From IMG/VR virus record IMGVR_UViG_3300028888_000073, positions 32,001 through 96,000 of that record: a stretch of DNA of 64,000 bases. One strand, written 5' to 3'. The notes under the pieces were generated by a model. That model saw nothing but the letters and a program-made list of their open reading frames with translations, searched no databases and was not told where the DNA came from. This document shows, piece after piece, positions 1 to 40,694 of this stretch. How positions within the stretch are numbered: position 1 is the stretch's first letter; each line of letters opens with the position of its first letter. Made by a program: the position numbers and the translations under genes. The stretch is from a virus (lineage: Duplodnaviria > Caudoviricetes).

Positions 1-308
1 ACATCCTCAGATGCTAAACTATAAAACGCTTTCTTTCCCTCATCTGTAGGTAAACATCCGCCTACAAATATCTTTCTTCCGCCGCTCTTTCGTTTGTATA
101 ACTGAACCGCCAAAACCCTCTTATTCTTTGTCACAAGTTTCCAAATAAAGTCTGGATCAAGAAGTTCCTCTTTTTCGTCAATATTTGCAATTCCGCCAAT
201 TGCGGCATATGCGTTTTGTAAAATATTCCAAACTTGATCTAAATATTCTTCCTTCTTTGTCATATCAGAATCACTATCAAATAGTGTAACGTAATGCTCC
301 AAAAGCAC
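1..308 (-). CDS. Hypothetical protein, runs off window edge (MLLEHYVTLFDSDSDMTKKEEYLDQVWNILQNAYAAIGG...)
   Basis: Open frame read manually from GTG at about 308 to the window start, directly after the stop of the esterase gene. Confidence 0.7.
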   Translation of the reverse strand, partial: MLLEHYVTLFDSDSDMTKKEEYLDQVWNILQNAYAAIGGIANIDEKEELLDPDFIWKLVTKNKRVLAVQLYKRKSGGRKIFVGGCLPTDEGKKAFYSLASED

Positions 309-310
309 AT

Positions 311-910
311 TTACCACTTCCTATTATTAAAATCATTTTCCGCTTTTCTGAAAATAGTTGTAAATGCCGTATCAAACACATCTCTAGTCATTCTGTGTCC
401 AAATTCAGCAGTAATCATGTGAGATTTACGGTATGTAGTTTCAAAATCGGCGCTAAAGTTACAAACGTCATCATTCGTTCCGAAGATAGCATATGTTTCA
501 CAAATCATCTCGTCATCAACATTCTTCATGTGTGTATCATAAATATCTTTCAGCTTATTAACAAAATCATCATTGATTTCGTATGTCTGAATTCCGTCAT
601 CTCGCTTGCAAAAATACTCATGTGTACCATATCCGATTATCGTTGCCGTTTCATAAGCCTTAATTGCAGGATTAATCAGAATTTTCTGAACACCACTAAT
701 TGTCATCGCATAAAATCCGCCAAGACTTGCTCCAATAATCATGTTAATATCAAATTTATCACATGCATCCTCAATAAACTTAATTGCTTCTTTCGGGTCA
801 AACGGAATATCAAAGCTAAACACTTCATGGTTTTTGAAAGTTTCTCTAATCCAATTAACAGTGTTGCCATCTTTTCCACTTCCGATTCCATGAACATACA
901 TAATTCTCAT
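311..910 (-). CDS. YqiA/YcfP-like alpha/beta hydrolase (esterase)
   Basis: YVHGIGS N-terminus, GASLGG nucleophile elbow, LINPA, GTNDDV, GHR; GAGGAGG RBS before ATG 910. Confidence 0.85.
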   Translation of the reverse strand: MRIMYVHGIGSGKDGNTVNWIRETFKNHEVFSFDIPFDPKEAIKFIEDACDKFDINMIIGASLGGFYAMTISGVQKILINPAIKAYETATIIGYGTHEYFCKRDDGIQTYEINDDFVNKLKDIYDTHMKNVDDEMICETYAIFGTNDDVCNFSADFETTYRKSHMITAEFGHRMTRDVFDTAFTTIFRKAENDFNNRKW

Positions 911-952
911 AATGTACCTCCTCGACAAGTATCATACCTCGATTACAAATAT

Positions 953-981
953 AGTATAACATATTTTAAGTTACTTGTCAA
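953..981 (-). promoter_or_regulatory. sigma-A-type early promoter
   Basis: TTGACA-17-TATACT with extended TG. Confidence 0.85.
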
Positions 982-990
982 GATATTTTC

Positions 991-1030
991 CATAAAAATC
1001 TCTAACAAACATTTGCTAGAGATTTTTATG
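991..1030. terminator. Stem-loop, probable intrinsic terminator
   Basis: cataaaaatctcta...tagagatttttatg inverted repeat after the 1057 stop. Confidence 0.65.
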
Positions 1031-1056
1031 ATATTTGTGAATAATGCATAACATCT

Positions 1057-2673
1057 TTAATCCTGACCAAAGTCAGTATCAAGAATCCACTTAAATAGAT
1101 CATCCTTTGTTCTGAATGAGTCAATTGTAACTTTTCCTGCCCTTACAACATGATTAATTACTCTTGCGCCGTATTTTAGTGTTCTCAGTCCGCTCACAAC
1201 CTCAATTGAAGAACTTCTACCATTCATACGCATAAACAGTTCAAGACCATCTTCTGTCTGCGCAGGATACCATGTATCATACTGCTTGTCACTAAAGAAA
1301 TTCTCTAACGGCTGTCTAGTTGAGTTGTTATAATCATCTGTGACAGTAACTAGGTCAGCTTTAGTAAATCCTGCGTCATACCACTTCAAATCAAGTAATT
1401 TCTCCGCAGACATTTCTTTTAGTTCTCTGGTAGTATATGTATTTCTCCAATCATAATCAAGATAACTTTCACATAACTCTAGGGATTCAGACATCGGCGG
1501 ATCAAGATACCCACGCTTAACATTCACATCGGTTCCAGTATCATCTATCCAATTTCTTATAAATTCAAGTATTCTTACGTACTGATCCCATGTTCCAAAA
1601 AAGTATAATCTTGCAAAATTGTCCTGAACATCTAACTCATACTCGGCGCTATCATATCCGTAACTCTTTGCTAAATTATCATCATCAAACATAAAATCAC
1701 TATCATCTAAGTATTGTTGTAAATCTGATAATAATTGTTCATTTGGCGGGTATATTGTAATTCCATAATTATCTGCTCGACTATTGAATGATTCATCTTT
1801 CTTTAACTTCTTATTCAGCTTATCAATCATATTTCCTGCCCATTTAGATAGTTCTGGATCATCATTTTTATTCCATACTTGTAAATTGTTTAATGCCTTA
1901 GTAATCTTTCCAAGACCTTTTTTCTTTGCAAGTTTTTCAAAATGAGACATAGGAAGATCATTTACACTCTTACCTTCTGGAACTTCAAGAATTCCGGGAT
2001 TCTTAACTTCAATTTCAGTGTCACCCTCACAAACTATCTTTGAAGTGTATTTTGTTTTAGACTCTGTAATATATGATTTTATGTTTAATTCATCTAATGC
2101 GGCTTTAATCGGGTCTGTCGGAGTAAAAAACGGAAAATCAAATTCACTATTATGGTAGTCCTTTAGTTCATACCCGTCTGAACCATCGAAAATTCCACAA
2201 ATACTATATGTTCCATAAGGCTCATAATATTCCAGAGTTGCAACAAGATCATAACCGCCTTTTTGTACAACCCAATTACCTACCTTATATTTGTTACGAT
2301 CACCAGAAAAGAACTTCTTTACCACAGATTTAATCTTGGAGTATGCTGACCTGTCAATAATATAATCAGAATCATTAACAGACTCTACCTTTGTTTGCTT
2401 ATCAGCAACACTTAATTTGGTGTTCTCACTCATACTGTTTATATAATCCAATTCATCATCAATGGATTCGTCTAGTTCATAATCTTCTTCATCTTCATAG
2501 CGTTCTGAAATTCCGTCTAAAACGGCATCAATAAAATCATCACTATGTCCTAATTTTTTAAGTTGTGTTGAAATAGAATTAAATGTTAAACTGTCATACT
2601 TCCATCTACTGTAGAAATAATTTACAGCTTTTTCAATATTATCAAAATTGCTCTTCTCTATCAGCTTAATCAT
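1057..2673 (-). CDS. Acidic multi-domain hypothetical protein, candidate head-internal polyprotein
   Basis: Start MIKLIE after GGGAGTG RBS; several internal xxES motifs separate apparent domains. Confidence 0.6.
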   Translation of the reverse strand: MIKLIEKSNFDNIEKAVNYFYSRWKYDSLTFNSISTQLKKLGHSDDFIDAVLDGISERYEDEEDYELDESIDDELDYINSMSENTKLSVADKQTKVESVNDSDYIIDRSAYSKIKSVVKKFFSGDRNKYKVGNWVVQKGGYDLVATLEYYEPYGTYSICGIFDGSDGYELKDYHNSEFDFPFFTPTDPIKAALDELNIKSYITESKTKYTSKIVCEGDTEIEVKNPGILEVPEGKSVNDLPMSHFEKLAKKKGLGKITKALNNLQVWNKNDDPELSKWAGNMIDKLNKKLKKDESFNSRADNYGITIYPPNEQLLSDLQQYLDDSDFMFDDDNLAKSYGYDSAEYELDVQDNFARLYFFGTWDQYVRILEFIRNWIDDTGTDVNVKRGYLDPPMSESLELCESYLDYDWRNTYTTRELKEMSAEKLLDLKWYDAGFTKADLVTVTDDYNNSTRQPLENFFSDKQYDTWYPAQTEDGLELFMRMNGRSSSIEVVSGLRTLKYGARVINHVVRAGKVTIDSFRTKDDLFKWILDTDFGQD

Positions 2674-2846
2674 ACAAACACTCCCATAGTACAAATTATC
2701 AATATCTTCTATATTTGTCCATATAAAAAGGACTCGGTAGTTTTACGTGATCCATACCATAACCGGATACTACAAAATAGAAAATCAACTATTCTGTTTT
2801 GTAGTATTACTTAGCGTCACACTTATATATCATGTGTAACTAGCAG

Positions 2847-3290
2847 TCAGTATTTCATCCAATACTGCTGTTTACCATCGCCGTAAAAATCTCCAGTTTC
2901 GTAAACTTCAAAACCATAGTTTTTATACATATTTACAGCGCGTGTGTTGTCAACGTCTACAGTTAGATCACGCCCGCCAAACTTACGAACACAATCATCT
3001 AGCAATATTTTGCCGAAACCCATACCACGATATTCCGGCTGAACCTGAACATTAAATATAAATCCTTTATTTTCACCAGAATGATAAACAAATGCATGAC
3101 CTATCTGATCATCTGTTTCGGGATCAACAAGAACCTCTCCAACTGTCTCACGATTTAATTGTTTATAATACTTACGACATTCATTATCAGTTTTTAGGTA
3201 TTCTGTTGCTTCCTTAGATGGGACAAAATATCTAATAAAATCACGATTATTGCTATTTCTGATATCAGATTCATTGATCATAAGTTTCAC
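2847..3290 (-). CDS. GNAT family acetyltransferase
   Basis: VQPEYRGMGFGKILL (motif A), DNTRAVNMYKNYGF (motif B); GTG start MKLMINES after GAGGTG. Confidence 0.9.
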   Translation of the reverse strand: MKLMINESDIRNSNNRDFIRYFVPSKEATEYLKTDNECRKYYKQLNRETVGEVLVDPETDDQIGHAFVYHSGENKGFIFNVQVQPEYRGMGFGKILLDDCVRKFGGRDLTVDVDNTRAVNMYKNYGFEVYETGDFYGDGKQQYWMKY

Positions 3291-3367
3291 AATAACACAC
3301 CTCAATCTATAACAAAACACATGCACCTAATGTCTATGCATTAAGTGCATGTGTTTAATGCATTTAA

Positions 3368-3676
3368 TTATCTTCTTCTAAATTTTCTATTTCTTCTGAC
3401 AGATTCGGTGCGACCATTAGAACGTCTACGTCTTCTGTCTACAGATTCATCAAATTCATCTTCAGTGTCTCTGTTTTCCCATTCATCAAATTCATTCATT
3501 CTGAAGATAAAAGCTAGGCATTTTGCAAGTTCTTCATCGCCAAGACATCTAACAATTTGAGAATCAAGTTCTTCCTTACCAAAGTAGTCACATGCAAAAT
3601 CATATGCTTCTCTAGCTTCCCAATCGTTTACTACCCAACCATAACTTTCAGCTTCGTTAAATTCTCTCTTTACCAT
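3368..3676 (-). CDS. Hypothetical protein, acidic with Arg-rich tail
   Basis: ORF with GAGGTG RBS. Confidence 0.7.
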   Translation of the reverse strand: MVKREFNEAESYGWVVNDWEAREAYDFACDYFGKEELDSQIVRCLGDEELAKCLAFIFRMNEFDEWENRDTEDEFDESVDRRRRRSNGRTESVRRNRKFRRR

Positions 3677-3803
3677 AATTAATTCACCTCAAAATAAATT
3701 TATAATTTACATAAATTTCGCATATAATCACTATCATTATAGTGATCTGATATATTATAATGTTAGTTATTCCATATGTTTAATGAAATATGTGTAAATA
3801 TTA

Positions 3804-4859
3804 TTAAAGACCTAATTCTTCAAGCGTCTTATTTCCACCCTGTCTTTCAGGCACATCACCGCCAAGAATCTCAGCGACTTCAAAATCATCAAGCAATCTA
3901 TCGACTTTTATATGTCCAGTAATGACCCACGGAACAGTATCAGGTCTTGGATTTGTGCGATACTTATAATAACCTCTTGTCGGAAGTTTCGGAAGTCCTG
4001 CAAGTGAGTGCTGATATTTATCAGAACGGTACGTTGTTCCATCTGCTCTAGTTCTCATATATCCCTGATCATCTGCTTCTGACTGATAATCAATATCCAT
4101 TACGTAATCACACAGTCCCCAAACAAAGTCATACGGAAAATAAACCTCTCCGGTATTAGCAAGAACTTTGTAGTATGTATCTTCGTCCTGTACGTAAAAC
4201 ACCTTATCATTATTTGCTTGTTTAGCATAATTACTAATAAATGTTTTCATTGTTTTTACTGATTTTGCATCTTCCGTTGGCTCAGTTGAAACCCAAGTAA
4301 CCGATCTATCAAACTGTGGCGCTCTTGGTAGATCGCCTAAATGAAAACCCGGTCGATACGAAAGTTGAGAAGACCCTATACTTTTCACCTGCGGTCTACC
4401 AGTCTTAGAAAGTCCTGCAAATTCTCCCTCTTCTGCGTCAAGCCAAACACCAATAGGAGTATCTTCTCCACCTGCGTTTGCAACCATTGGTGGATACAGC
4501 TTACCATTCTTTACACGGAACACTTTGTACGCTTTGCCAGTTTTAGATTCAGAAAAGTCCATTTCAGAAATTTTTTCGTTAATACGTAGCTTGATCGGTG
4601 TTCTAACACGTTCAAACATATCATAATCAATTACCGCAGAACATTTGTTTTGAATATGCTTTGCAATGGCGTAAACTGTTTTAGATTCACTTCCTGATCC
4701 TGTAATATCAAACTCGCGCTCAATGTCCTCACACAACTCTTCAAGTGTCGGAATAAAACCTCTTACGGCGTGATAAGAAACCTGCTCATCAATATAATTA
4801 TTTATATCTGTAGAATGAGCAATAATATAATCATGCTTATATTGTCCAAGTCTATCCAT
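3804..4859 (-). CDS. Hypothetical protein; C-terminal domain (YKVF..KNGKLYP...YRPGFH) recalled from large polyvalent phage proteins
   Basis: Long ORF with GGAG RBS; the domain similarity is from memory only. Confidence 0.55.
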   Translation of the reverse strand: MDRLGQYKHDYIIAHSTDINNYIDEQVSYHAVRGFIPTLEELCEDIEREFDITGSGSESKTVYAIAKHIQNKCSAVIDYDMFERVRTPIKLRINEKISEMDFSESKTGKAYKVFRVKNGKLYPPMVANAGGEDTPIGVWLDAEEGEFAGLSKTGRPQVKSIGSSQLSYRPGFHLGDLPRAPQFDRSVTWVSTEPTEDAKSVKTMKTFISNYAKQANNDKVFYVQDEDTYYKVLANTGEVYFPYDFVWGLCDYVMDIDYQSEADDQGYMRTRADGTTYRSDKYQHSLAGLPKLPTRGYYKYRTNPRPDTVPWVITGHIKVDRLLDDFEVAEILGGDVPERQGGNKTLEELGL

Positions 4860-4874
4860 TCTATAAAAACTCCT

Positions 4875-5714
4875 TTACGCATATTCTTCATTATCTACAT
4901 AGTCAAGATTTCTTGCATACTTCTTGTCATATTTAATCTCAGTATCCTCAGATCCACATTCAGGACAGTACGCATACCCCTGTAATAGATCATCAAATAA
5001 TCTGCTACTTCTTCTGCTATGAATCGGATCAAACTTTTCAACATATCCACAATCATTACATTTGAAATAGTTTCCGGTTGCTTGTGCTATTGCGGCTTCA
5101 TCATCATGCATAATATAAGGCTCATACGTTTCTCCATCACTAGACAGCTTGTATGAATCAATGTCGCCGCCGCAAATACCGCATTTGTATAACGATGGAT
5201 CGGCTATCTTTTTACAGAACTTTGCAAATGATGCAACATTCTTATCACACTTCGGGCAATATAAAACATATGGTTTCTTTGCAAGTAAACTTCTGAACAG
5301 TTTCGACTCACCATCATCAGCATGTGTATCAATAACTACACCTAAAACGTCACCGATGATTTTTCCCCACTTGTGGAACTCTCTGCCATGATTGAAACAT
5401 CCGTTTATTGTGTGACAAAATTCATGTGCCAACACAGAAAGAACTATTTTATCATCTCTGTCTTCAATCTTAGATAGATTTGGATTTAGTGATATTGTAT
5501 AATCATATACATCGCCATCCGATCCTGTATAGTCATACTTCCTAGAACAACGCCCTAACACCTTTCTATTACTCATTCTTATGTCATTTCCAAGTGTTTT
5601 GCGAATGTGATCAAAAGGAATCGGAATTTCTGGATGTTGTTCTAACTGATCCCACGCAAATTCAAATACAAATTGCATATCATCCTTTGTGTATTCTTCC
5701 AGTATCATTAACAT
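4875..5714 (-). CDS. SprT-like zinc metalloprotease with Zn ribbons
   Basis: LGRC, HEFCH (HExxH), HGREF, four CxxC pairs. Confidence 0.85.
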   Translation of the reverse strand: MLMILEEYTKDDMQFVFEFAWDQLEQHPEIPIPFDHIRKTLGNDIRMSNRKVLGRCSRKYDYTGSDGDVYDYTISLNPNLSKIEDRDDKIVLSVLAHEFCHTINGCFNHGREFHKWGKIIGDVLGVVIDTHADDGESKLFRSLLAKKPYVLYCPKCDKNVASFAKFCKKIADPSLYKCGICGGDIDSYKLSSDGETYEPYIMHDDEAAIAQATGNYFKCNDCGYVEKFDPIHSRRSSRLFDDLLQGYAYCPECGSEDTEIKYDKKYARNLDYVDNEEYA

Positions 5715-5722
5715 ATCACCAC

Positions 5723-5908
5723 TCAATCACCTGAACCATCTGAAAAGTAAATGAAATCATCATCGTCATCATCTTCACAGTCATCATACACAGGTTCTTT
5801 TGTAAAATCATCTACTACATCATGATATTTATTATACCAATAACAATTTATACCACAATGCTCACAGATAACAGATGATGTTTCTTCACCACAATGTTTA
5901 CAAATCAT
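5723..5908 (-). CDS. Small Zn-ribbon protein with acidic tail
   Basis: CKHC...CEHC. Confidence 0.6.
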   Translation of the reverse strand: MICKHCGEETSSVICEHCGINCYWYNKYHDVVDDFTKEPVYDDCEDDDDDDFIYFSDGSGD

Positions 5909-5926
5909 TATGAATCATCGTCCTCA

Positions 5927-6529
5927 TTAAACATAATCTGTTCCTACACGATCAATCCACTCTGTAATATATCCAAATAGATCATCAAGATATGTAGCAG
6001 ATGCATCATCGTACTCTCCATCGTAGTCAAACGTGGCTGTCCACGCATCGTGAATATTTGTATTTGAATGTTCAAGCATTATAGTTGTCAGTTCCTTGTG
6101 TTCATAAGAAGAATATAGAATTACTTCAAATGAATCATAATGACCTCCAGCCATATGAGTACCTTTAACATCAATTGTGTATCCGTTATCATCGACATAT
6201 TCTTGAAGCCTATCTGTAAATTCCTGAAAATCAAGAATTGCAGAAGAACTAGCCTGAGATTCAGCAAATAATTCATTTTTTACGTTTGAGAACTTCAAAG
6301 ATTCACTTACTTCTCCATTATCAGTGCCAAAAGTCTTTACATAAGTATAACATGAAACGGATGGATTCTTTCCAGATTTTATGGCATTTTTAATATACTG
6401 CTTGGCTCCAATTTCAATAACAGCTTGGTTGACACCAAAATCTACTATTTTATTATCGCTATCATCTACAAGTATATATCGTTTAACTTCTTTTTCATTA
6501 TTAGATTTTTCATTAATGTTCAATTTCAT
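5927..6529 (-). CDS. Hypothetical protein (MKLNINE tag)
   Basis: ORF with AAGGTG RBS. Confidence 0.7.
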   Translation of the reverse strand: MKLNINEKSNNEKEVKRYILVDDSDNKIVDFGVNQAVIEIGAKQYIKNAIKSGKNPSVSCYTYVKTFGTDNGEVSESLKFSNVKNELFAESQASSSAILDFQEFTDRLQEYVDDNGYTIDVKGTHMAGGHYDSFEVILYSSYEHKELTTIMLEHSNTNIHDAWTATFDYDGEYDDASATYLDDLFGYITEWIDRVGTDYV

Positions 6530-6701: not shown

Positions 6702-7313
6702 TCACCAATTTCTTGAAATTAGTCTGTGTTCAGAAGCATAATCATATATCATATCAAAAATGTCTTTTGATGTATTAATTACCATTTTTCCAAAGTCCTT
6801 ATTTACTTTTTTCCAACGACAATCGTAAATTTCATCTCCAAAATAAGCGGCATAATTTGATATTGCATAAGAATCTTCCTTAGTAACATACGGGATTTCT
6901 CGTTCTTCAATATCTTCACTATCAGAATAATAGGACTCAGTAAATGATTTTCCAACCTCTCTATCGAGAAATTTCTTAAAAGAATGTTTCCATGTTTTTC
7001 CATATCCCCCGCTGAAAAATTCTTTTCCGTAGTATGTTCCGCGATTACCATTAAATCTGTCATAAACAGTAAATTCTGCGGAAACTCTTGTATCTCTGTC
7101 TGCTTTAGGATCAATATAAATTGTATATGTCCACAATTCATAATTGTTTCCATCGCCAACCATAACACCACCATTTGTTACTCTAGCACTAAGTTTGTCA
7201 GCATTGCTAGCATCAGCAACAATATGTCTAATTGCTTCTTTTTGATCTAAATATGCACCACCAGATTTCTTATTATATCTATCAATAACATCTGATTCAT
7301 AAATCAACTTCAT
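6702..7313 (-). CDS. Hypothetical protein (MKLIYES tag)
   Basis: ORF with AGGAGTG RBS. Confidence 0.7.
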   Translation of the reverse strand: MKLIYESDVIDRYNKKSGGAYLDQKEAIRHIVADASNADKLSARVTNGGVMVGDGNNYELWTYTIYIDPKADRDTRVSAEFTVYDRFNGNRGTYYGKEFFSGGYGKTWKHSFKKFLDREVGKSFTESYYSDSEDIEEREIPYVTKEDSYAISNYAAYFGDEIYDCRWKKVNKDFGKMVINTSKDIFDMIYDYASEHRLISRNW

Positions 7314-7326
7314 TATATTCACTCCT

Positions 7327-7749
7327 TTATTTTCTACAATTATGACAAGTATAATGATCTATTCCGGCACGTTCTCCAAGCATAGTCCAAGTTATGTGAG
7401 GAATAGTCGGAAGATCAAGATTATAGTAATCTACTATCTTTTGCTTACATTCTTTATTGTTTATACACTTATCTAAAAATACTATGCATGTATACTCTTC
7501 AAACTTTCCATCAAAATCATATTCAGGGTCAATCATTATCCGACCTCTAGGAAAATAATCCCATGACATGCGCTTGTCGCCAACTGTATAATCATCAGAA
7601 AACGTATTCCAAGTATTCTTATGTGTTTTACCGTTCAAGTCATATCCATAATTATATTGCGGAACTTCTGACGTAATCCCTACGACATCACCGTCAATTA
7701 TCCAGAAAAATCCCTCATAAGGATAATTTCTATTTTCGGTAAGTTTCAT
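7327..7749 (-). CDS. Hypothetical protein (MKLTE tag; GFFW...DYFPRGR...HYTC)
   Basis: ORF with GAGGGTG RBS. Confidence 0.7.
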   Translation of the reverse strand: MKLTENRNYPYEGFFWIIDGDVVGITSEVPQYNYGYDLNGKTHKNTWNTFSDDYTVGDKRMSWDYFPRGRIMIDPEYDFDGKFEEYTCIVFLDKCINNKECKQKIVDYYNLDLPTIPHITWTMLGERAGIDHYTCHNCRK

Positions 7750-7753
7750 TACA

Positions 7754-8674
7754 TTAGTCACCCTCTACAACTGAACTCTTTTTCAGCTTATGGAACAGAC
7801 CGTTAAATCTATCGTTATAGCAGTCAATATAGAAATCTTCATATCCATCAAATAGGTGTAAACGCTTTCTCTTATCATGGTATCCGCTAATGTCATCATC
7901 TCTGTCATACTCAATCTCAACTACCTTATATGGAATGTATCCTTTATTTCCACCATTCGGAAGATGTCCGAACTGGAAATCTCTTATAATATAGTCACCT
8001 TTTTTTAGCGTAAGCGGATCACAGTTATAGTCATCAATATGATCTTCAACCTGACAGAAGAGTGTGTATGGTTGACCTAGTTTCAAATGGTCTAAATGTT
8101 CACAAATCGGTGTACGCTTTCTACGAACACTAGCAGACATGATACTCTCTGTGTATCCCTGTGCGCCGCATTGTGTGATTCTTGATATGAAATACTTCAT
8201 CTGAGATGTGAAGAATCTTGTCCACTCATCTAGTGTAGATTGAATGTCGGAAGAAAAGTTATTGTAAATAGATGAAATATATTCAATTACAGTATTTACT
8301 ACAAGAGATATTGCCTGTACGCCTGTTTCAAGTGTAAACGAACCGCCGCCAATATCAACTGTCCATAGATCACCGACAATATCACTTGCATTGTTAATGT
8401 TGCGAATATATGAACCATCTTCACAATACATCTCAAACGCCGCATCTGCACAATCCCACAGCTTATAATAAATCTCATACGCCTTTTCATGAAGTTCCTT
8501 GAAGTTTTCGCCGCAAGCGTTAATGTGAATTGTGTGAACATCATTAGACGCAAGTGTTAGAATATATCCAAGTGTTTCAAGTGAATTATTGCTCTGCTCT
8601 GAATCAACACCTACCACAGTATCAGGAATCGGAGCGAATTCAGAATTATAGTCCTCATTTCTAATCTCGATCAT
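7754..8674 (-). CDS. Dps/ferritin-like domain protein with C-terminal extension
   Basis: HINACGENFKELHEKAYEIY..L.DCADAAFE resembles Dps HWNVxGxxFxxLHxxFEExY...DxxAE. Confidence 0.65.
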   Translation of the reverse strand: MIEIRNEDYNSEFAPIPDTVVGVDSEQSNNSLETLGYILTLASNDVHTIHINACGENFKELHEKAYEIYYKLWDCADAAFEMYCEDGSYIRNINNASDIVGDLWTVDIGGGSFTLETGVQAISLVVNTVIEYISSIYNNFSSDIQSTLDEWTRFFTSQMKYFISRITQCGAQGYTESIMSASVRRKRTPICEHLDHLKLGQPYTLFCQVEDHIDDYNCDPLTLKKGDYIIRDFQFGHLPNGGNKGYIPYKVVEIEYDRDDDISGYHDKRKRLHLFDGYEDFYIDCYNDRFNGLFHKLKKSSVVEGD

Positions 8675-8680: not shown

Positions 8681-9040
8681 TTATCCCACCTTGTTCTTTA
8701 TATCTTTTACAATTAAAATTGCTGTTTGAATATCAACTGATATTGAATCAGCACGTTTCGTATTTCGTGTACAATCAATACGCACATCACGCTTACCGTC
8801 ATTCAGAACCTCTATATACATTCTTGTCATGCGATCTCTTGTATACCTAACACGAATGTTAACATCATCTGATACAATTATTCTAAAGTTTCCGTCATTG
8901 TTGTCAATATATCTTACGCCCATATTATCTGCAACGGATATTAGCTTATCCTTTAGAGATTCACCTTTATCTGAATCCGCGTTCATATCGAATTCAAAAT
9001 CATCCGCATCTTCATAAATACGTTTATATCTCGGATACAC
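8681..9040 (-). CDS. Hypothetical protein
   Basis: ORF in operon. Confidence 0.65.
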   Translation of the reverse strand: MYPRYKRIYEDADDFEFDMNADSDKGESLKDKLISVADNMGVRYIDNNDGNFRIIVSDDVNIRVRYTRDRMTRMYIEVLNDGKRDVRIDCTRNTKRADSISVDIQTAILIVKDIKNKVG

Positions 9041-10393: not shown

Positions 10394-10699
10394 TCATTTC
10401 ATTTTTCTAAACTTATTCATCCAATACCATATGAAATACGACATAATATTCAATGAGAACTTCTTAGCTTCAATTCGCCGGAGTTCTCTATTGAATGTGT
10501 TATCATATGTGTAATTGGAAGAAATCTGAATTGTATAATCTCTGTTGAAACAAACAGATATATAATACTTATTTGTATAGAACTTTGCATATCTTCGTTT
10601 ATTAAACGCTTTCAAGATTGCGTAGTCTATTGTTGACCGTTTCAACTCTTTATCAGCACTCACATGAATCTGCTGATCGAATTCAAGTAGCGGTATCAT
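10394..10699 (-). CDS. Hypothetical protein
   Basis: ORF with AGGTG RBS. Confidence 0.6.
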   Translation of the reverse strand: MIPLLEFDQQIHVSADKELKRSTIDYAILKAFNKRRYAKFYTNKYYISVCFNRDYTIQISSNYTYDNTFNRELRRIEAKKFSLNIMSYFIWYWMNKFRKMK

Positions 10700-12016: not shown

Positions 12017-12256
12017 TTATTTATAACTTTTTTGAGTATCCTTATCAGTTGAATTCATAATTGATTTTCTCTTACCGCCAATATGCTCAAATAAAATAAC
12101 AAGCGCATACTTATTACAAAGTTTTTCATAAAAAGCTACTGCGTCATCGTAAATGTCAAACTTCTTTTTCTTCTTTGGTTGATTTGTTTTATCTACATCA
12201 TCCCACGCCATTACATAGAAATAATGAGTATTTTTATCATCGTGTAGTACAATCAT
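12017..12256 (-). CDS. Hypothetical protein
   Basis: ORF with GGAGAGTG RBS. Confidence 0.6.
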   Translation of the reverse strand: MIVLHDDKNTHYFYVMAWDDVDKTNQPKKKKKFDIYDDAVAFYEKLCNKYALVILFEHIGGKRKSIMNSTDKDTQKSYK

Positions 12257-14704: not shown

Positions 14705-14813
14705 AATAATCAACCTCCATACCAAGTTCTTATATTTATAATGTGATTTGCATAAATTATTTTATTTGGAAAACCAATATAAAATTGGTTAGTGCCTATA
14801 ACTACTCATTTAT

Positions 14814-14842
14814 AGTATATCATATTTTTATGAAAAAGTCAA
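14814..14842 (-). promoter_or_regulatory. sigma-A-type promoter
   Basis: TTGACT-17-TATACT. Confidence 0.8.
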
Positions 14843-17128: not shown

Positions 17129-17157
17129 TTTTATCGCCTTTCTTTCTGTACAAACAT

Positions 17158-17186
17158 AGTATAACATATTTCAATCTTTATGTCAA
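17158..17186 (-). promoter_or_regulatory. sigma-A-type promoter
   Basis: TTGACA-17-TATACT. Confidence 0.85.
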
Positions 17187-17444: not shown

Positions 17445-17470
17445 CGGAATTAACCCCCCTTTCTAAATAT

Positions 17471-17499
17471 AGTATATCATATTTTCAATGAAATGTCAA
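17471..17499 (-). promoter_or_regulatory. sigma-A-type promoter
   Basis: TTGACA-17-TATACT. Confidence 0.85.
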
Positions 17500-17530: not shown

Positions 17531-17559
17531 TTGACTTTTTTAGTAAGATGTGATATAAT
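17531..17559 (+). promoter_or_regulatory. Divergent sigma-A-type promoter
   Basis: TTGACT-17-TATAAT with TG. Confidence 0.8.
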
Positions 17560-17579
17560 ATACACAAAGAGGTGATCAT

Positions 17580-19855: not shown

Positions 19856-19884
19856 TTGACAAATGACAGATTATATGATATACT
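19856..19884 (+). promoter_or_regulatory. sigma-A-type promoter
   Basis: TTGACA-17-TATACT. Confidence 0.85.
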
Positions 19885-19911
19885 ATGTTTAATGATAGTG
19901 AGGTGTCTATT

Positions 19912-22108: not shown

Positions 22109-22600
22109 TTATGATAAGATATCAATATTTTCCAGTTTAGCTTCAATGAGTTCTCTGATCTTTTCATTAAGCGCGTACATAAACTCTCCGTCATCGAACA
22201 TCTGATTAACGTCATAATCTGATCCTGAGATGTCTGTAACATTTACAGAAACAGAATACGATCCAATGAATTTTACATGTGCTTCACACTCAAGTTCACG
22301 TTCTTCCTCGAACGGAAACCACTCAATAGAACTCTTTCTAAAAAGTTCATTTTTGTACTTATTAAAGACTTCCGTTGCAAACTGATCAATGTACATATCA
22401 AATTCACAACAGAGTCCCACATACCCGCCAGAATCCCACATGGAGAATGAGTCCTCATTGATAGATGCATAGTCACCAAACAGGTTTCTTACGTTATCCT
22501 CTGCAATTCTGTAGTATGCTTCCTGAGTTGATTCATCATCATAGTCAATGTAGTCATCATTTTCGTAATCTTTATAATCCTCATTAATTCGTAATACCAT
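22109..22600 (-). CDS. Acidic hypothetical protein (MVLRINED tag)
   Basis: GAGGA RBS. Confidence 0.7.
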   Translation of the reverse strand: MVLRINEDYKDYENDDYIDYDDESTQEAYYRIAEDNVRNLFGDYASINEDSFSMWDSGGYVGLCCEFDMYIDQFATEVFNKYKNELFRKSSIEWFPFEEERELECEAHVKFIGSYSVSVNVTDISGSDYDVNQMFDDGEFMYALNEKIRELIEAKLENIDILS

Positions 22601-22647
22601 TTCAAATCATCCTCTCTAAACAATTAAACGGCTTCACCTACAAATAT

Positions 22648-22676
22648 AGTATAACATATTATGAATAAAAAGTCAA
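22648..22676 (-). promoter_or_regulatory. sigma-A-type promoter
   Basis: TTGACT-17-TATACT. Confidence 0.8.
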
Positions 22677-30228: not shown

Positions 30229-30849
30229 TTATAATCTTATATGTAGTTTTCTATAGGATTCTGATTTTTCGGGTGATCCGTCATTTTCGGCTTTTCTAAC
30301 ACCGCGCTTTTCCTGCTTATATAAATCCTCTTGATAATCTTGAATCCTGTGCATCATTTCATTTGCACAAACAATGAACGTCTTACCAACCATATCAACT
30401 GTACGTTCTTTCGGTGTCGGATTTGTCTTGTTTGCATCAATTTCAGGATGATCAGTGAATCTGAATTTTACAGCTTTATACAAATCTTCATGCTGTTTAT
30501 AAAATTCAATACCTTGCCTACTAGACGGTTCAAATGTAACGTATATATACATAGACAGCCCGAAGTATGGTGATGGATCAATCTGTATCTCTTTTACGCC
30601 GTTAAGTGCAAGAACCTTACTTCTCCAAGCCTTTACAAACTCTTTAATATCATTCTTGATTTCTATGATTTTAGGATTCTTAGCATACTCTTTTCTCTTT
30701 TCCTTAGTATCTACATACGGTTCTATAAACTGTGTAACATAATTTTTACACTTCTTGATCTTGTCAGTTTTCTTTAGATATTCTAGTAGTGCTTCTGCGA
30801 AACATCTTCCACTAAGTTCATATAGCATATCTTCTCTTATCAGTTTCAA
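30229..30849 (-). CDS. Hypothetical protein (MKLIRED tag; FRFTDH)
   Basis: GAGGTG RBS. Confidence 0.65.
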   Translation of the reverse strand: MKLIREDMLYELSGRCFAEALLEYLKKTDKIKKCKNYVTQFIEPYVDTKEKRKEYAKNPKIIEIKNDIKEFVKAWRSKVLALNGVKEIQIDPSPYFGLSMYIYVTFEPSSRQGIEFYKQHEDLYKAVKFRFTDHPEIDANKTNPTPKERTVDMVGKTFIVCANEMMHRIQDYQEDLYKQEKRGVRKAENDGSPEKSESYRKLHIRL

Positions 30850-33376: not shown

Positions 33377-33469
33377 GTAGTTTGTAGGAAAATAAAAAAG
33401 AAAATCCTACCAAATAATTGATAGGATTTTTGTATATAGTGACAACATGTTCTTTTTTGAAATGTTTTA

Positions 33470-34677: not shown

Positions 34678-34694
34678 AGTTATTCTTCCTCCAA

Positions 34695-34970
34695 TTAACA
34701 ATAAAATTCTTCTTCACGGTCAAACTCAGACTTTTCAGTTTTCATGCAGTTTGGCATGAAGTCTGTAAGTTCTGTCTCAATAGTTCTACCATCTTGCTTT
34801 GCAATTCTTTCATTTTCTTTCCATTCACTCTCAGTGTACTGAAACGCCCACTCTCTGCCGAATAGCTTAAACATCTTACTACGTGCATCATCATAATCTG
34901 TTCCCTCGATAACAACGTAATGACCACCATACTTGTGCGCAACGCCAAATGTAAAATAATAACGCTCCAT
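34695..34970 (-). CDS. Conserved-looking phage hypothetical protein (YYFTFG...WAFQY)
   Basis: GGAGG RBS; motif common in phages (from memory). Confidence 0.7.
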   Translation of the reverse strand: MERYYFTFGVAHKYGGHYVVIEGTDYDDARSKMFKLFGREWAFQYTESEWKENERIAKQDGRTIETELTDFMPNCMKTEKSEFDREEEFYC

Positions 34971-34988
34971 TTATAATTTCCTCCAAGT

Positions 34989-35411
34989 TTATTTTTTATA
35001 TTTTTTACAATCCTTACATCTAGGAAAGTTATCTGGACAAGCCTGTAAATCTGAACAAAGTTTTCTGTAATATATAAATCCATTCTTATGTTTCATAACA
35101 CTGACAATCCACGGATCATCACTGCACAACCCACCATACGAACTAAGATATCCTCTAGCAATACGCTTATCCCCGATATCTACACAGAATTCATATGGAG
35201 TATCAGGTGTCAATGACTTGTAAAAATTTTCAAGTTTATGCCATCCGGCAGTATTAGACTTAGTAGTGATCTTCTTTGTACTAACTGTAGTATTATGTTT
35301 ACTTACTTTACTGTTAGTTGATTTCTTTTGTGATTGTGCTGTTTGTTTATTTAGTTTCTTTGTGGTATCTGAATTCTTGTTTGAACTTCCAACATCAAAT
35401 AAAGGTTTCAT
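34989..35411 (-). CDS. Hypothetical protein
   Basis: ORF, ATGA coupling. Confidence 0.6.
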   Translation of the reverse strand: MKPLFDVGSSNKNSDTTKKLNKQTAQSQKKSTNSKVSKHNTTVSTKKITTKSNTAGWHKLENFYKSLTPDTPYEFCVDIGDKRIARGYLSSYGGLCSDDPWIVSVMKHKNGFIYYRKLCSDLQACPDNFPRCKDCKKYKK

Positions 35412-35644
35412 TTCATAATACCTCTCCGTCCGTGTCGTTTATCCTTCTGCCGCTTTGCGTGAAATTTAGAAATCACATCACTTCTATAGTTGTCATATAG
35501 TTGAAAAGTATCCACAACATCATATGATCTATTTCGTTCCTCTACATACTTAGCCCATTTCTCACATGATGTAGCACATCCTGCACAACGATCAGCGCAT
35601 CCAATACCAGTTGACTTGTCAAAGCAAGGAGTTTTCCTATCCAT
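35408..35644 (-). CDS. Small Cys-rich protein
   Basis: C..R..GC..SC..W pattern. Confidence 0.65.
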   Translation of the reverse strand: MDRKTPCFDKSTGIGCADRCAGCATSCEKWAKYVEERNRSYDVVDTFQLYDNYRSDVISKFHAKRQKDKRHGRRGIMK

Positions 35645-35653
35645 ATAAGCACC

Positions 35654-37696
35654 TCAGAACAGAGACTTTCTAGTTTTAGTCTTACTCGGATTTTGTTTTG
35701 GTTGTTTATCAATGTCAAGCAAATTAACTAATGATCTAGTTTTTAACATATTCATAAACATTTCCTCAGTTATAATCCTAACATTCAACTCTTTTGCCTT
35801 TTTGTTTTTAGCTGAATTACTATTAATGTCATTGTTAATTAAATGTGTTGTTTCAGAAGAAACAGAACTGCTAACCGTTCCGCCGTTACGTTTGATTGTG
35901 TCAATGATTTCATCACGGCTACAAGAAAGTTTACCAGTTATTACAAACTTCATTCCAGTAAGCAATGAACTCTCTTTCACTGTTTCACTGAAATCAAGAA
36001 TGTCACACAGTTTCATATATTCTGCTACATTGTCAGCATCAGAAAACCAATCATCAAGTGATTTTGCAACGGCATCTCCTAGTCCTTTTATCGTAGAACA
36101 AAGAAGATAAAAGTCTACTCCAAGAAGATTATTAGGATTGTTGTCAAGATTATTAGCTATGATCTCAGCAACAGACTTACCAATTCCGTCAATATTCAAA
36201 GCACCTAGCAATCTACTTAGTGTTGTGTGTTTCGATCTTTCAATAGATTCTTTAAGTACATCAACAGATTTCTTACCAAATCCGGAAAGACTGCAAAGAC
36301 TGTCGTAATGTGTGTCAACAAATTTATAGATATCAGAATATTTTTTAATATAATTAAGTCTTACCAATTTATCAATCGTTTTCTCAGATAGACCATCAAT
36401 ATTCATTCCGTGCTTTGATGTAAATGAAGCAAACTTCTTGATCATCTTTCCAACGCAATGTTCGTTTGTACATTTAAGAACAACAACACCGTCATTTGTA
36501 ACTAATTCAGTCTCAGATGAACAGTATGGACATTGCTTCGGAACAAACTGCATATATTCATCTGCATTGGAATGCTTTGTAAGATTATAACGTACCTGCG
36601 GAATGATCTCATTCGCTTTATACACTTCAATATAATCATCCTTTGCAAGATTAAGCTGTGCAAGAATTGAGATATTATGAACACTTGCTCGTGTAACAGT
36701 AGTTCCGTCAATGTCAACCGCATCAAATACTGCCGTAGGAGTAAGTACACCAGTTTTACCAATTGTAAAATCAATATCATTTAGTGTTGTATTGTATCCG
36801 TCATCATAAAACTTATAGGCAAGTCCATTTCTATAATGATGTGCTGTACTTCCTAAAGATTCACCATAAGCAATATCATCATACATTGCAACAATTCCAT
36901 CAATAGGAACATAATCATTATCAGCTTTCACCTTTAGCATTTGAATAGCATCTTTAATACTTTTTAATGCATTTGTTAAATATGGAATATATGTCACAAC
37001 ATTAAATCCGAGTTCTCTTGCGGCTTCAAGACCGGAAGTCATACAACCATTAGTCGATATATCGTTTGCATTCCATACAACAAATCTAACAAACCGCTTC
37101 GCACATATTCCGCTATTCAACTGTCTAACTGATCCGCTTGCAAGATTTCTAGGATTCTTATAAGGTTCTTCCAGTGTTGAATTGATGTATACAAAATCAT
37201 CCTTATGAATAATAGCTTCTCCGGTAATACGTATTGTTCCTTTAACACGTATCTTAGATGGAACACCTATGAAAGTTCTAGCGTTGTGTGTAATATCTTC
37301 TCCAGTATATCCATCGCCGCGAGTCTCCGCACGTACCAGTCTACCATCTACATATGTCAACTGACATGTAAGACCGTCTAGCTTGTGCATCAGTACAATG
37401 TCTTTACCACGTCTAAACTTTTCAACCGCTTCAATATCCTTTGCTTTATCAAGTGAAAGTAACGGTTTATAGTGTTCAACTTTTTCCAAATTACTAAGTA
37501 CAGTATAACCAACATTCTGTGTCGGAGAATTTGAAAGTATAATTCCTGTTTCATCTTCAAGACGTTTCAGGTCATCAAATAGCTTATCATACTTTTCATC
37601 CGGAATAGGTGAATTGTTTTCAACATAGTAAAAATATCTGCATTTATTCAGATATTCTACAAGATCATTAATTTGTTGTTGCTTTGTCATATTCAT
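35654..37696 (-). CDS. ligA: NAD-dependent DNA ligase
   Basis: YY...SPIPDEKYD, LSLDKA, KLDG, TRGDG, GEA, NPRN, DGIV, Zn finger, HhH repeats, BRCT (FVITG...SSVS). Confidence 0.96.
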   Translation of the reverse strand: MNMTKQQQINDLVEYLNKCRYFYYVENNSPIPDEKYDKLFDDLKRLEDETGIILSNSPTQNVGYTVLSNLEKVEHYKPLLSLDKAKDIEAVEKFRRGKDIVLMHKLDGLTCQLTYVDGRLVRAETRGDGYTGEDITHNARTFIGVPSKIRVKGTIRITGEAIIHKDDFVYINSTLEEPYKNPRNLASGSVRQLNSGICAKRFVRFVVWNANDISTNGCMTSGLEAARELGFNVVTYIPYLTNALKSIKDAIQMLKVKADNDYVPIDGIVAMYDDIAYGESLGSTAHHYRNGLAYKFYDDGYNTTLNDIDFTIGKTGVLTPTAVFDAVDIDGTTVTRASVHNISILAQLNLAKDDYIEVYKANEIIPQVRYNLTKHSNADEYMQFVPKQCPYCSSETELVTNDGVVVLKCTNEHCVGKMIKKFASFTSKHGMNIDGLSEKTIDKLVRLNYIKKYSDIYKFVDTHYDSLCSLSGFGKKSVDVLKESIERSKHTTLSRLLGALNIDGIGKSVAEIIANNLDNNPNNLLGVDFYLLCSTIKGLGDAVAKSLDDWFSDADNVAEYMKLCDILDFSETVKESSLLTGMKFVITGKLSCSRDEIIDTIKRNGGTVSSSVSSETTHLINNDINSNSAKNKKAKELNVRIITEEMFMNMLKTRSLVNLLDIDKQPKQNPSKTKTRKSLF

Positions 37697-38105
37697 GCTC
37701 TCTTTCAAATAATTTCTTATAACATTTAGGTCCGAATCCAACCTCAATAGAAGTTTCATCAATAAGCTGTCTGCCGCAGTGAGCACAGCGCCCAGTATGC
37801 ATAATACGATACTCGTCACTGTCTCTGTTGCGGATAGCATCTAATATTGTCTGAATCTGAATATCAGTTTCATTGATGCCGTACTTATCATTATGCTTGT
37901 ATGTAAGAACATTACCACGAATCTTAAAGTATCCACAGTAAATATTCTTATTCTCTTTCTTGATGTAAAGCTGATATATTTTGTTATTATCAACTCCGTT
38001 ATCTTTCCTGAAAATCTTGTATGCAAATCTTACAAAGTCAGTTTCAATTATGAACGTGCAATTTCCGGCAAACATAAATCTGATTTTATTCCTAATGATC
38101 CCCAA
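37668..38105 (-). CDS. DUF6011-like Zn-finger protein
   Basis: HTGRCAHCGRQLIDETSIEVGFGPKC. Confidence 0.8.
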   Translation of the reverse strand: MGIIRNKIRFMFAGNCTFIIETDFVRFAYKIFRKDNGVDNNKIYQLYIKKENKNIYCGYFKIRGNVLTYKHNDKYGINETDIQIQTILDAIRNRDSDEYRIMHTGRCAHCGRQLIDETSIEVGFGPKCYKKLFEREHEYDKATTN

Positions 38106-38141
38106 ATAAAACACCTCCTGACAATGCAATCTTACAATTAT

Positions 38142-38170
38142 AGTATAACATATTTGTAAGAAATTGTCAA
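38142..38170 (-). promoter_or_regulatory. sigma-A-type promoter
   Basis: TTGACA-17-TATACT. Confidence 0.85.
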
Positions 38171-38193
38171 GAGGGTTTTCAAATTTTCATATT

Positions 38194-38469
38194 TTAACTA
38201 TTTGTATTATCTTCATATGTTCCGTCAAGCTGTGCCTTAATTCCATTCACAATATCGTCAGTGTCATAATTATCAAAATCACTCTTATCAATTGTTGCGT
38301 ATGAATCATCACCGTCTGTAATAAAAACAGTTTTATCTGAATCATCATCACACCAATACTTAATACCATCTTCACTGCCGCTAAACTTATAGTTTCCGTT
38401 ATCAAATTGATCTTTGCAGTATGCAACTATATTGTTTATATTATCACCAATAGATTCAAACAGTCTCAT
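38194..38469 (-). CDS. Acidic hypothetical protein (MRLFES tag)
   Basis: AGGTGG RBS. Confidence 0.65.
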   Translation of the reverse strand: MRLFESIGDNINNIVAYCKDQFDNGNYKFSGSEDGIKYWCDDDSDKTVFITDGDDSYATIDKSDFDNYDTDDIVNGIKAQLDGTYEDNTNS

Positions 38470-38482
38470 ATTAACCACCTTT

Positions 38483-38812
38483 TCAATAATCTTCTTCACC
38501 GTAATCACAAATCGGACAGCTTCCAGAATCATCTAGCGTAGTGTCACACTCCGGACACGTATCAATTTCTGTACGCTCAATATCATCAAAATCCTGTTCC
38601 CCATCCATATCAATTATAAAATCATCAAATATAAGTATATCACTTCTATTCATATTGAGGTCGTTTGCGATCCGGTGTCGGAAGTTGTTACGCGCCTGAC
38701 TTAAAGATACTGCAAGTGTTTCATATGGTGGGTTCAAATCTCTAAGTAAACCGTTATCAATACCGAACTTATCAAGTCTGTATCTATGTCTGTTATCCTC
38801 TAGTATGATCAT
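38483..38812 (-). CDS. Hypothetical protein with C-terminal Zn ribbon (MIILE tag)
   Basis: CPEC...CPICDYGEED. Confidence 0.7.
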   Translation of the reverse strand: MIILEDNRHRYRLDKFGIDNGLLRDLNPPYETLAVSLSQARNNFRHRIANDLNMNRSDILIFDDFIIDMDGEQDFDDIERTEIDTCPECDTTLDDSGSCPICDYGEEDY

Positions 38813-38824
38813 ATGAAGCACCTC

Positions 38825-39373
38825 TTAGAATTTCAGATATGTAAGTGTCGGAGGAATTGAATCAAGTTCATCTTCTAATTCTCGTTTCTTAGACTCTAGT
38901 CTATCTTGCTTGATCTGAACCTTGTCAGCATCAGCTAATAGTCGTTCACGTTCTTCTTCTGTAATGTCATCAAATTTTGTATTAAAATCTTCCCAATATG
39001 CATCAATTTTTAATAGCATGTCATCTATGGTATCAATTTCTGACTTCTTGCGAGAATACTCAGGATTGTCAATAGTATATGTTATTCTGTCGTAAAACTT
39101 AGTTCCCTCATCTGTAGTATATCCAACATGTATGGGAGTATTCGGAAAATCTTTGTCAAGAGATTTAAGCAATTCCGTTGCTATGCCTTGTCTTTTATAT
39201 TCCGGAAGAACCGTTGTCATTTGAATATATGGTTCATCTTCGTAAATAGAATATTCTAACTTTCCAACAACCTTATCATCAACAATATAATCTTTGTTCA
39301 TATCGACCTGACCGCTGTAAGCACCTACAGAGTATGTTGATATTCTTCCATCAAGTTCTTCTAATATGATCAT
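38825..39373 (-). CDS. GNAT family acetyltransferase with coiled coil (MIILE tag)
   Basis: VLPEYKRQGIATELL, TDEGTKFY. Confidence 0.85.
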   Translation of the reverse strand: MIILEELDGRISTYSVGAYSGQVDMNKDYIVDDKVVGKLEYSIYEDEPYIQMTTVLPEYKRQGIATELLKSLDKDFPNTPIHVGYTTDEGTKFYDRITYTIDNPEYSRKKSEIDTIDDMLLKIDAYWEDFNTKFDDITEEERERLLADADKVQIKQDRLESKKRELEDELDSIPPTLTYLKF

Positions 39374-39383
39374 ATACAAAACC

Positions 39384-39887
39384 TCACTGTCTACCTGCAA
39401 CATCTAATAGCTTATCAATATCATAAAAAGATTCAACGCCGCGATCTAAATATTTCTGGATAACTTTTCTATTCTTTTCAATGCCGAACTTCTTTATCAG
39501 TCTAGGCATATCAGAAAGCCTGTAATGAAAACTTTCATCATTTAGAATCCATGTATCAATAAACACAATATCATTTGCTTTTACATCTTCATAAACACCG
39601 TATTCAGTATCATTTAATTCTACATAGTTGTCATTGTGTTTATTCTTAAATGCAACCGTACAGCCACCATAGCCGCTTCCTCCGCCGTTTGTAACACACC
39701 ATATGAAGTTACCCTCATACTCCAATTGACGCGCCTTGTCAATACGTAGACCGTGCTTAGAAATAGAATCTACATTTTCATATTGAGTATTATGGTATAG
39801 CATATCAGGAGTATTGTATTGTGGATATTCGTACTTATCAAGAAGATATGTAAAATCATATATTCCAACATTTTCTAGTATGATCAT
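39384..39887 (-). CDS. Putative ADP-ribosyltransferase-fold protein (MIILE tag)
   Basis: LYHNT..NVDSISKHGL resembles the H-class ART N-terminal motif; later YG and EY. Confidence 0.6.
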   Translation of the reverse strand: MIILENVGIYDFTYLLDKYEYPQYNTPDMLYHNTQYENVDSISKHGLRIDKARQLEYEGNFIWCVTNGGGSGYGGCTVAFKNKHNDNYVELNDTEYGVYEDVKANDIVFIDTWILNDESFHYRLSDMPRLIKKFGIEKNRKVIQKYLDRGVESFYDIDKLLDVAGRQ

Positions 39888-39902
39888 TTTACAACACCTA
39901 CA

Positions 39903-40694
39903 TCATTTCTCAATCTTTACAGGCTCTAACCACTTACGAGGTTTACCTTTGAAAGACCGTTCTTTGCGCTCTTGTGCTAAGAATTTATTAGCATCTGACG
40001 TAACACGTTTTACCGCATTAACACGTTTTACTAATTCATCTGCAACATCTACAGTATACATATAGTTGTTCCGAACCTGCACCATAGTTTGTTCAAGACT
40101 TCTTAATTTATTTAACAAAGCAGTAATATGTTTATTATATTGATCTTTCTTTCCCGGATTGGTTGCCCAATCTCCCATTTCATCAATCAGAGTTTTAATT
40201 GTGTCGTACCCATTCTGAACATCCTTAATATATTCAGGAAGTTTATTCTGCTGTAATACTTTCACATAATAATCTCTGTTTACTTGTGGATCATAGTTTT
40301 TGCTATAAACATAATTTGTTGATGCCGGAAGATTCTCTTTGTCCTTTGTTGATATCATTCCTGTAAGATCATCCATTCGCTGTCTACGTCTACTTGTAAC
40401 GCTAACACCACCCGATTCTATTTCATACACATCATACATTTCAAAGTCTTTAAGTTTCAGCTTCTTTGGGTTGTATTCAAACTTTCCTCGTGTGTAATAT
40501 GCAATAACATCTGAACCGTCAGCAACAAGAAAACTACTATCTCTAGCTGTTCTTGGATTGAACGTGTCAATCTTGTGTAATTCAGAATCTTGAAGATTGA
40601 TTGTTTTGTTTATTTTATCTATAACATCCCGTGAAACACTAAGACCAATCTTTCTGATATCAGAAATAACATTTTCATTAACTAAGCTAATCAT
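39903..40694 (-). CDS. Hypothetical protein (MISLVNE tag)
   Basis: GAGGTG RBS. Confidence 0.7.
   Translation of the reverse strand: MISLVNENVISDIRKIGLSVSRDVIDKINKTINLQDSELHKIDTFNPRTARDSSFLVADGSDVIAYYTRGKFEYNPKKLKLKDFEMYDVYEIESGGVSVTSRRRQRMDDLTGMISTKDKENLPASTNYVYSKNYDPQVNRDYYVKVLQQNKLPEYIKDVQNGYDTIKTLIDEMGDWATNPGKKDQYNKHITALLNKLRSLEQTMVQVRNNYMYTVDVADELVKRVNAVKRVTSDANKFLAQERKERSFKGKPRKWLEPVKIEK

Follow-up and report, generated by a model that had tools for sequence, protein, structure and literature searches.

The window analyzed here comprises 64,000 nucleotides (bases 32001–96000) of the 117,949-bp virus record IMGVR_UViG_3300028888_000073, and its subject is the tag, a short N-terminal peptide of 5–10 residues ending in hydrophobic-x-Glu that begins a series of phage proteins. 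Gene coordinates are window positions unless marked as genome positions. The DNA has a G+C content of 34% with nearly every gene on the minus strand, and 181 genes were called on the record using codon bias and starts guided by the ribosome-binding site (RBS). CheckV puts the completeness of the record at 52%, and a 216,752-bp contig carries a protein identical to one of this phage; on these grounds the true genome is probably that of a jumbo phage of about 217 kb, and the record about half of it.

The head module, comprising the large terminase, portal, S77 protease and capsid protein, is located at genome 12.6–23 kb, just outside the window. The portal matches Portal_T4 (3e-51; gp20 type) and the capsid protein matches Gp23 (8e-54), the latter being about 40% identical to its counterparts in the nearest named phages, Bacillus vB_BceM-HSE3 (hereafter HSE3), SP-15, Listeria LIS04 and Streptococcus GXN1, and 26% identical to those of T-even phages. 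A megablast search with 40 kb of the window against a phage collection gave no DNA-level match, and an IMG/VR search with the single terminase protein found no relatives. Relatives in IMG/VR, cited below by G or L handles, were reached through a portal alignment and an alignment of the g051 family; G001 (201,895 bp) was fetched whole.

The first-pass annotation of this DNA had listed 17 tagged starts in the window, all of which were reproduced at the same coordinates by our independent RBS-guided gene call. Together with g057, absent from that earlier list, the tagged genes are:

1–308, minus strand: g040, 216 aa, GTG start, tag MLLE; the gene extends past the window start
1057–2673, minus strand: g042, 538 aa, tag MIKLIE, no assigned function; G001 ortholog MIKLFME
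2847–3290, minus strand: g043, GNAT acetyltransferase, tag MKLMINE
3368–3676, minus strand: g044, 102 aa, tag MVKREFNE; L042 ortholog MIKLIKE
4875–5714, minus strand: g046, SprT-like metalloprotease with zinc ribbons, tag MLMILE
5927–6529, minus strand: g048, 200 aa, tag MKLNINE
6702–7313, minus strand: g050, 203 aa, tag MKLIYE
7327–7749, minus strand: g051, 140 aa, tag MKLTE
7754–8674, minus strand: g052, 306 aa, tag MIEIRNE; weak PHROG match, Dps-like or DNA-binding
8681–9040, minus strand: g053, 119 aa, GTG start, 10-residue tag ending in IYE
10394–10699, minus strand: g057, 101 aa, tag MIPLLE; G001 ortholog MVRLLE
22109–22600, minus strand: g075, 163 aa, tag MVLRINE
30229–30849, minus strand: g079, 206 aa, TTG start, tag MKLIRE; G001 ortholog MITLMNE
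38194–38469, minus strand: g092, 91 aa, tag MRLFE; G001 ortholog MIILE
38483–38812, minus strand: g093, 109 aa, tag MIILE
38825–39373, minus strand: g094, 182 aa, short GNAT-like protein, tag MIILE
39384–39887, minus strand: g095, 167 aa, tag MIILE; L013 ortholog MNILIE
39903–40694, minus strand: g096, 263 aa, tag MISLVNE; G001 ortholog MVLYYE

Besides the start of g057 at 10699, the window holds one further, weakly tagged start at 54698, and additional tagged starts lie just outside it at genome 23112, 24273, 24480, 25152, 29450, 30450, 97469 and 104255. Overall, the tags are concentrated at genome 20–50 kb and 60–80 kb and are rare at 80–118 kb, in line with the clustering and the scarcity toward the end of the window described earlier. 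One copy each of 28 tagged proteins amounts to 5354 residues, or about 0.6 MDa.

The tagged proteins include several enzymes: g037 is a zeta-toxin-like P-loop kinase, g039 an S-adenosylmethionine (SAM) lyase, g043 and g094 are GNATs and g046 is an SprT-like protease, while the majority of the remaining tagged proteins lack a family assignment. The Dps-like character of g052 proposed in the first-pass annotation comes down to its weak PHROG match. The proposed ADP-ribosyltransferase-like (ART-like) proteins found no support, as neither g045 nor g042 has a Pfam match and PF12120 is absent from the genome; function searches with these two proteins gave no usable result, and an ESM-atlas score of 0.77 is the sole ART lead.

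To count tags, we used a strict definition, in which the first acidic residue at positions 4–11 is Glu, P3 (two residues before this Glu) is hydrophobic and a second hydrophobic residue occupies P4 or P5. By this definition 30 of the 181 proteins are tagged, compared with 10.2 ± 2.9 (maximum 21 in 1000) when residues 2–12 are shuffled, an enrichment of about 7 standard deviations that upholds the motif against shuffled controls; internal-Met pseudo-starts of this phage fit the strict tag in 4.4% of cases. The 202-kb relative G001 has 43 tagged proteins out of 313 (16.1 ± 3.7 shuffled) and the outgroup G005 (217 kb) 19 out of 247 (13.0 ± 3.4), whereas Bacillus phage HSE3, with a head of this type, shows no enrichment (5/120 against 6.1 ± 2.2). 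The enrichment is real and confined to a narrow clade, and it is a general property neither of A/T-rich phage N-termini nor of S77-bearing phages.

The similarity between tagged genes is restricted to the peptide. Synonymous codons vary among the tags, including both TCN and AGY serines at P1', and the DNA upstream of tagged genes has only the RBS in common; therefore, selection acts on the peptide, and a DNA-level cassette was rejected on the same two observations. The bodies are unrelated, as had been claimed: g038 and g144 form the sole clear paralog pair among 28 tagged proteins, and paralogy was accordingly rejected as the source of the tag.

Between orthologs, the tag varies in length and sequence, the Glu is kept and the bodies align from the next residue. 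Thus, MKLTE of g051 corresponds to MILKE and MVILKE in its orthologs, and the 9-residue tag of g026 to tags of 6 and 10 residues. The g051 family comprises 97 homologs, of which 94 have the core motif; 84 of these are tagged, with tags of 5–15 residues and Leu or Ile at P3 in 82, and about ten homologs are tagless, starting a few residues before the conserved core. Homologs of the GNAT g043 carry a linker of 0 to 15 residues between tag and conserved body. Across homologs of the kinase g037 the Glu never varies and directly precedes the domain; roughly a dozen of these homologs have it internally, following often acidic extensions of 20–130 residues.

AlphaFold2 models calculated on homolog alignments reached a mean predicted local distance difference test score (pLDDT) of 86 for g051 and 82 for g037. 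In both modelled proteins the tag has a pLDDT below 50 and no secondary structure, and the first strand starts only at residue 11 (g051) and residue 23 (g037). Judged from this predicted disorder, the tagless homologs, the variable linkers and the insertions and deletions between orthologs, the leader is a separable module outside the fold. The g051 model gave no significant match to PDB folds; its family, with at least 97 metagenome homologs, has invariant Cys and His positions.

The motif also occurs away from the N-terminus:

4575–4592, minus strand: perfect internal tag at residues 89–95 of g045 (gene 3804–4859), with KLRINE at 90–95; no other internal site of the genome scores higher with the tag matrix

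This copy is preceded by a separate N-terminal segment, and a protein at the syntenic position in L045 (8755–9987) has a similar site at about residue 65, such that the two proteins could represent long propeptides or fused genes. Copies inside proteins speak for a cleavage site rather than for a signal of translation initiation.

Two side observations concern tag-like peptides. The leader of g061 (12017–12256) resembles a tag ending in Asp, where the G001, L042 and L045 orthologs have Glu; with Asp at the terminal position, T4 proteins are still targeted but no longer cleaved (PMC9026906). Separately, four paralogs of 254–295 aa (47806–48693, 57764–58573, 58588–59427 and 59449–60213), 32–45% identical, have in common an internal KLRIPED motif that scores high with the tag matrix and is probably part of their fold.

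In the relatives, the tagged genes adjoin the head genes. In G001, L013, L015, L042, L044, L045 and L048, runs of them occur immediately upstream of the large terminase gene, and lineages differ in tag flavour, with INE in this phage, LKE or IKE in L015 and L048 and YI-x-E in L042. In G005, the interval from portal to S77 protease contains three genes whose products, of 237, 431 and 1161 aa, each begin with a tag followed by Ala; the T4 prohead-core genes sit between portal and protease. The largest of the three is a BspA-type leucine-rich-repeat protein, and a tagged protein of this kind is also found in the pre-terminase run of L048.

The first-pass annotation suggested looking elsewhere in the genome for a T4 gp21-like protease and for an x-Glu site in the capsid and scaffold proteins; the protease is present, and so is such a site in the capsid protein. 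The protease is g017, a 560-aa protein encoded outside the window, whose first 170 residues form a Peptidase_S77 (T4 gp21) domain (37.7 bits against a cut-off of 27; residues 30–166 match PDB 5JBL, T4 gp21) followed by a coiled coil. When aligned with T4-type gp21, the catalytic His75 (HP motif) and Ser131/132 (SSRG motif) are invariant, and both N-terminal x-Glu sites of T4-type gp21, LIE and h-x-ES (h, hydrophobic), are retained; in T4, the LIE site near the gp21 N-terminus agrees with the cleavage logo (PMC9026906).

The capsid-protein alignment pairs the T4-type gp23 maturation site, a Glu with Ala-Glu-Ile-Gly-Gly after it, with Glu63, which is invariant and occupies the position of T4 gp23 Glu65. 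The P3 residue is Met, Leu or Ile in this phage, HSE3, LIS04 and GXN1, and likewise hydrophobic in four closer relatives. The sequence is strongly conserved after the aligned Glu and variable before it, which fits the expectation for a propeptide boundary, and the capsid protein is predicted to be cut at this hydrophobic-x-Glu. The head-module g012 family also keeps an internal basic-hydrophobic-basic-hydrophobic-Glu-Ser site. A matrix derived from 111 tags ranked the aligned capsid site 2/18, 1/14, 1/23, 6/18 and 6/13 in five capsid proteins, providing modest support for a common recognition motif.

Taken together, we favor the reading, with a probability of roughly 0.6, that the tag is an expanded form of the T4-style capsid-targeting and cleavage propeptide. 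The tag fits the cleavage rule predicted for the T4-type protease of this phage. As a short N-terminal propeptide, it would attach its protein to the scaffold core while the prohead assembles, and the gp21-family protease would cut it off after the terminal Glu; once released, the protein would remain inside the head and be delivered to the host along with the DNA. In this manner about 25–30 unrelated proteins of the record would travel, and 40 or more in the 202-kb relative, with the zeta-toxin-like kinase, the SAM lyase, the two GNATs and the SprT-like protease among the cargo. All four steps of this model, from scaffold docking through cleavage and virion retention to injection, are inferred.

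The T4 capsid targeting sequence (CTS) was reportedly described by Mullaney and Black in 1996. It is found on IPI, IPII, IPIII, Alt and gp24 and is removed by the gp21 protease (PMC9026906, PMC3012670); T4 propeptides span 7–65 residues, for IPIII the N-terminal 10 residues are enough to direct packaging, and the cut falls after a Glu (PMC9026906, PMC5694885). The tag resembles the CTS in being a short leader (7–10 residues in Alt, the internal proteins and gp24, with a Met-Lys or Met-Ala start) with two hydrophobic positions and a Leu/Ile-x-Glu end, attached to otherwise unrelated bodies, and the two systems have homologous S77 proteases, portals and capsid proteins with the same aligned capsid maturation site. 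The differences are of scale and setting: T4 has about eight tagged proteins, mostly small and basic, whereas here 25–45 per genome (about 15% of genes) are tagged, with sizes up to 538 aa and several enzymes among them. Moreover, unlike in T4, the protease carries a long scaffold-like tail of coiled coil as a fusion, the phage infects a Gram-positive rumen bacterium and the system is predicted from gene sequences.

Several observations weigh against this interpretation, the first being transcription. The genome contains about 24 near-identical consensus sigma-A-type promoters interleaved with the tagged genes, built of TTGACA, a spacing of 17 nt, an extended -10 element TG-n-TATACTAT and a conserved start region ATTTGTAAGAG. 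A hairpin terminator precedes most of them, cutting the genome into short early-type operons. Within the window they are located as follows:

951–981, minus strand: consensus sigma-A-type promoter driving g041 and then tagged g040, g039 and g038
14812–14842, minus strand: consensus early-type promoter
17156–17186, 17469–17499, 22646–22676, 32760, 33346, 38140, 47368, 51949, 56837, 60260 and 63026, minus strand: same promoter type
17531–17561 and 19856–19886, plus strand: same promoter type

One such promoter lies 46 nt upstream of tagged g075, and no strong terminator was found between the promoter at 14812 and the tagged run g057–g042. Many tagged genes lie in operons of strong, presumably early, sigma-A-type promoters. 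The caveat raised at first reading, that two tagged genes are downstream of early-type promoters, stands as regards the promoters and falls as regards the number, since many more are in such operons. No late promoter motif could be defined; a CATTATAT-like candidate before a few tagged genes and the lysin-like g070 was dropped, as it occurs seldom and lacks conservation in G001. Proteins made early could still be packaged, provided that they last until prohead assembly. In T4, the genes for internal proteins have early as well as late transcription.

The second group of counterarguments concerns the cleavage motif. The tag matrix places the capsid site first or second in only three of the five capsid proteins, and Asp, Asn, Glu or Lys frequently occupies P1' of the tags, in contrast to the Ala, Ser or Thr of the head-protein sites. 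In the g037 family, the invariant Glu could belong to the kinase domain instead of marking a cleavage site. A protease of this family is also present in HSE3, which shows no enrichment of tags, so that possession of the protease is not by itself a predictor of tags. Finally, a literature search for virion proteomics of this phage or its relatives found none, and the SP-15 genome paper contains no such data.

The main rival explanation holds that the tag is a docking or recognition peptide for a partner other than the prohead, such as a chaperone, an adaptor or protease for timed degradation (the tag then acting as an N-terminal degron of early proteins) or a localisation factor, and that its likeness to the gp21 motif is partly coincidental. 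The early-type operons, the modest fit of the tag matrix to the capsid site and the tagless, protease-bearing HSE3 all suit such a partner, as does a cargo resembling host-takeover enzymes, which would be made early anyway. We nevertheless consider it unlikely, if worth keeping in view: no candidate partner was identified, the invariant part of the tag is the terminal hydrophobic-x-Glu, as at the capsid and protease sites, and tagged runs adjoin the head module in every relative, with the tagged proteins of G005 being encoded inside it.

Alternatively, the tag might be selected for translation initiation or early elongation, either through A/T-rich, unstructured first codons or through a favourable nascent peptide. 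Its residues Lys, Ile, Asn, Leu and Glu do have A/T-rich codons, and genes of Firmicutes often encode Lys at position 2. We regard this as improbable, as shuffling residues 2–12 at constant composition yields only a third of the observed count, codon choice varies freely, HSE3 lacks the enrichment, and the motif recurs far from the start codon in g045, the L045 protein and a dozen g037 homologs. Least plausible is that the tag is the ordinary first β-strand of α/β folds, a remnant of common descent or chance, for although its hydrophobic/polar alternation is like that of an amphipathic strand, GNATs often start with such a strand and some loose matches (sheath, neck protein, g080) clearly belong to the fold, the tag is disordered in both models, orthologs show insertions and deletions within it, tagless homologs and variable-length linkers exist, the bodies are unrelated and the count lies about 7 standard deviations above shuffles. 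The translation-start, fold-element and chance explanations are thereby largely excluded.

Extending the capsid-targeting reading from this phage to its relatives, a broader claim can be put forward tentatively, at somewhat short of even odds: a clade of uncultured rumen and gut phages of about 200 kb with Gram-positive hosts may load and inject 25–45 different proteins by means of a T4-type tag of 5–10 residues, the cargo including kinases, SAM lyase, acetyltransferases, a metalloprotease and leucine-rich-repeat proteins. A parallel is found in the polymorphic ip loci of T-even phages, which, in the work cited by two T4 papers (PMC3012670, PMC9026906), encode diverse proteins with only the CTS in common. 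Both cases present groups of rapidly changing genes that are unrelated apart from a retained leader, read in the T-even phages as anti-defence cargo; the T-even loci comprise few genes, whereas the runs in this clade span 10–20 kb beside the terminase gene and have lineage-specific tag flavours.

The phages phiKZ, 201phi2-1 and SPN3US also have a related protease cutting after Glu, together with many head propeptides and ejected proteins (PMC5694885, PMC10052503). Their P3 residue, however, is Ala, Ser or Gly, and their propeptides, mostly 20–127 residues long, have no single short tag in common. Processing in these phages rests on mass spectrometry, whereas the present tag system is read from sequence. 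Varied capsid-borne cargo delivered with the DNA through a shared address element is likewise known from MuF-fused polymorphic toxins, the P22 ejection proteins and the N4 virion RNA polymerase. In those cases an entire domain or a structural role, rather than a cleavable peptide of 5–10 residues, supplies the address.

If the capsid-targeting reading is correct, the T4 mechanism would operate here at about five times the scale, with enzyme cargo and in a Gram-positive host. The products of about 15% of the genes would be destined for the head, compared with a handful in T4, and the SAM lyase (anti-restriction) and the zeta-like kinase would take the cargo beyond small basic proteins. Pre-delivered phage proteins are normally found only via virion proteomics of cultured phages; here, sequence alone would list the proteins delivered to the cell by a phage ahead of all gene expression, rendering a pre-made takeover and anti-defence arsenal readable from the genome. 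In addition, the tag could provide a handle for packaging when phages that infect Gram-positive hosts are engineered.

A minor observation concerns the head genes themselves. The major capsid gene is split in several relatives (L012 12873–15128, L011 4573–6219, L026 4527–6972 and L019 15788–19289), with an open reading frame for a GIY-YIG-like endonuclease (start MYGYIY) between the pieces. In these relatives the terminase gene is 130–420 codons longer than here, corresponding to intein-sized inserts, whereas the capsid and terminase genes of this phage are both uninterrupted.

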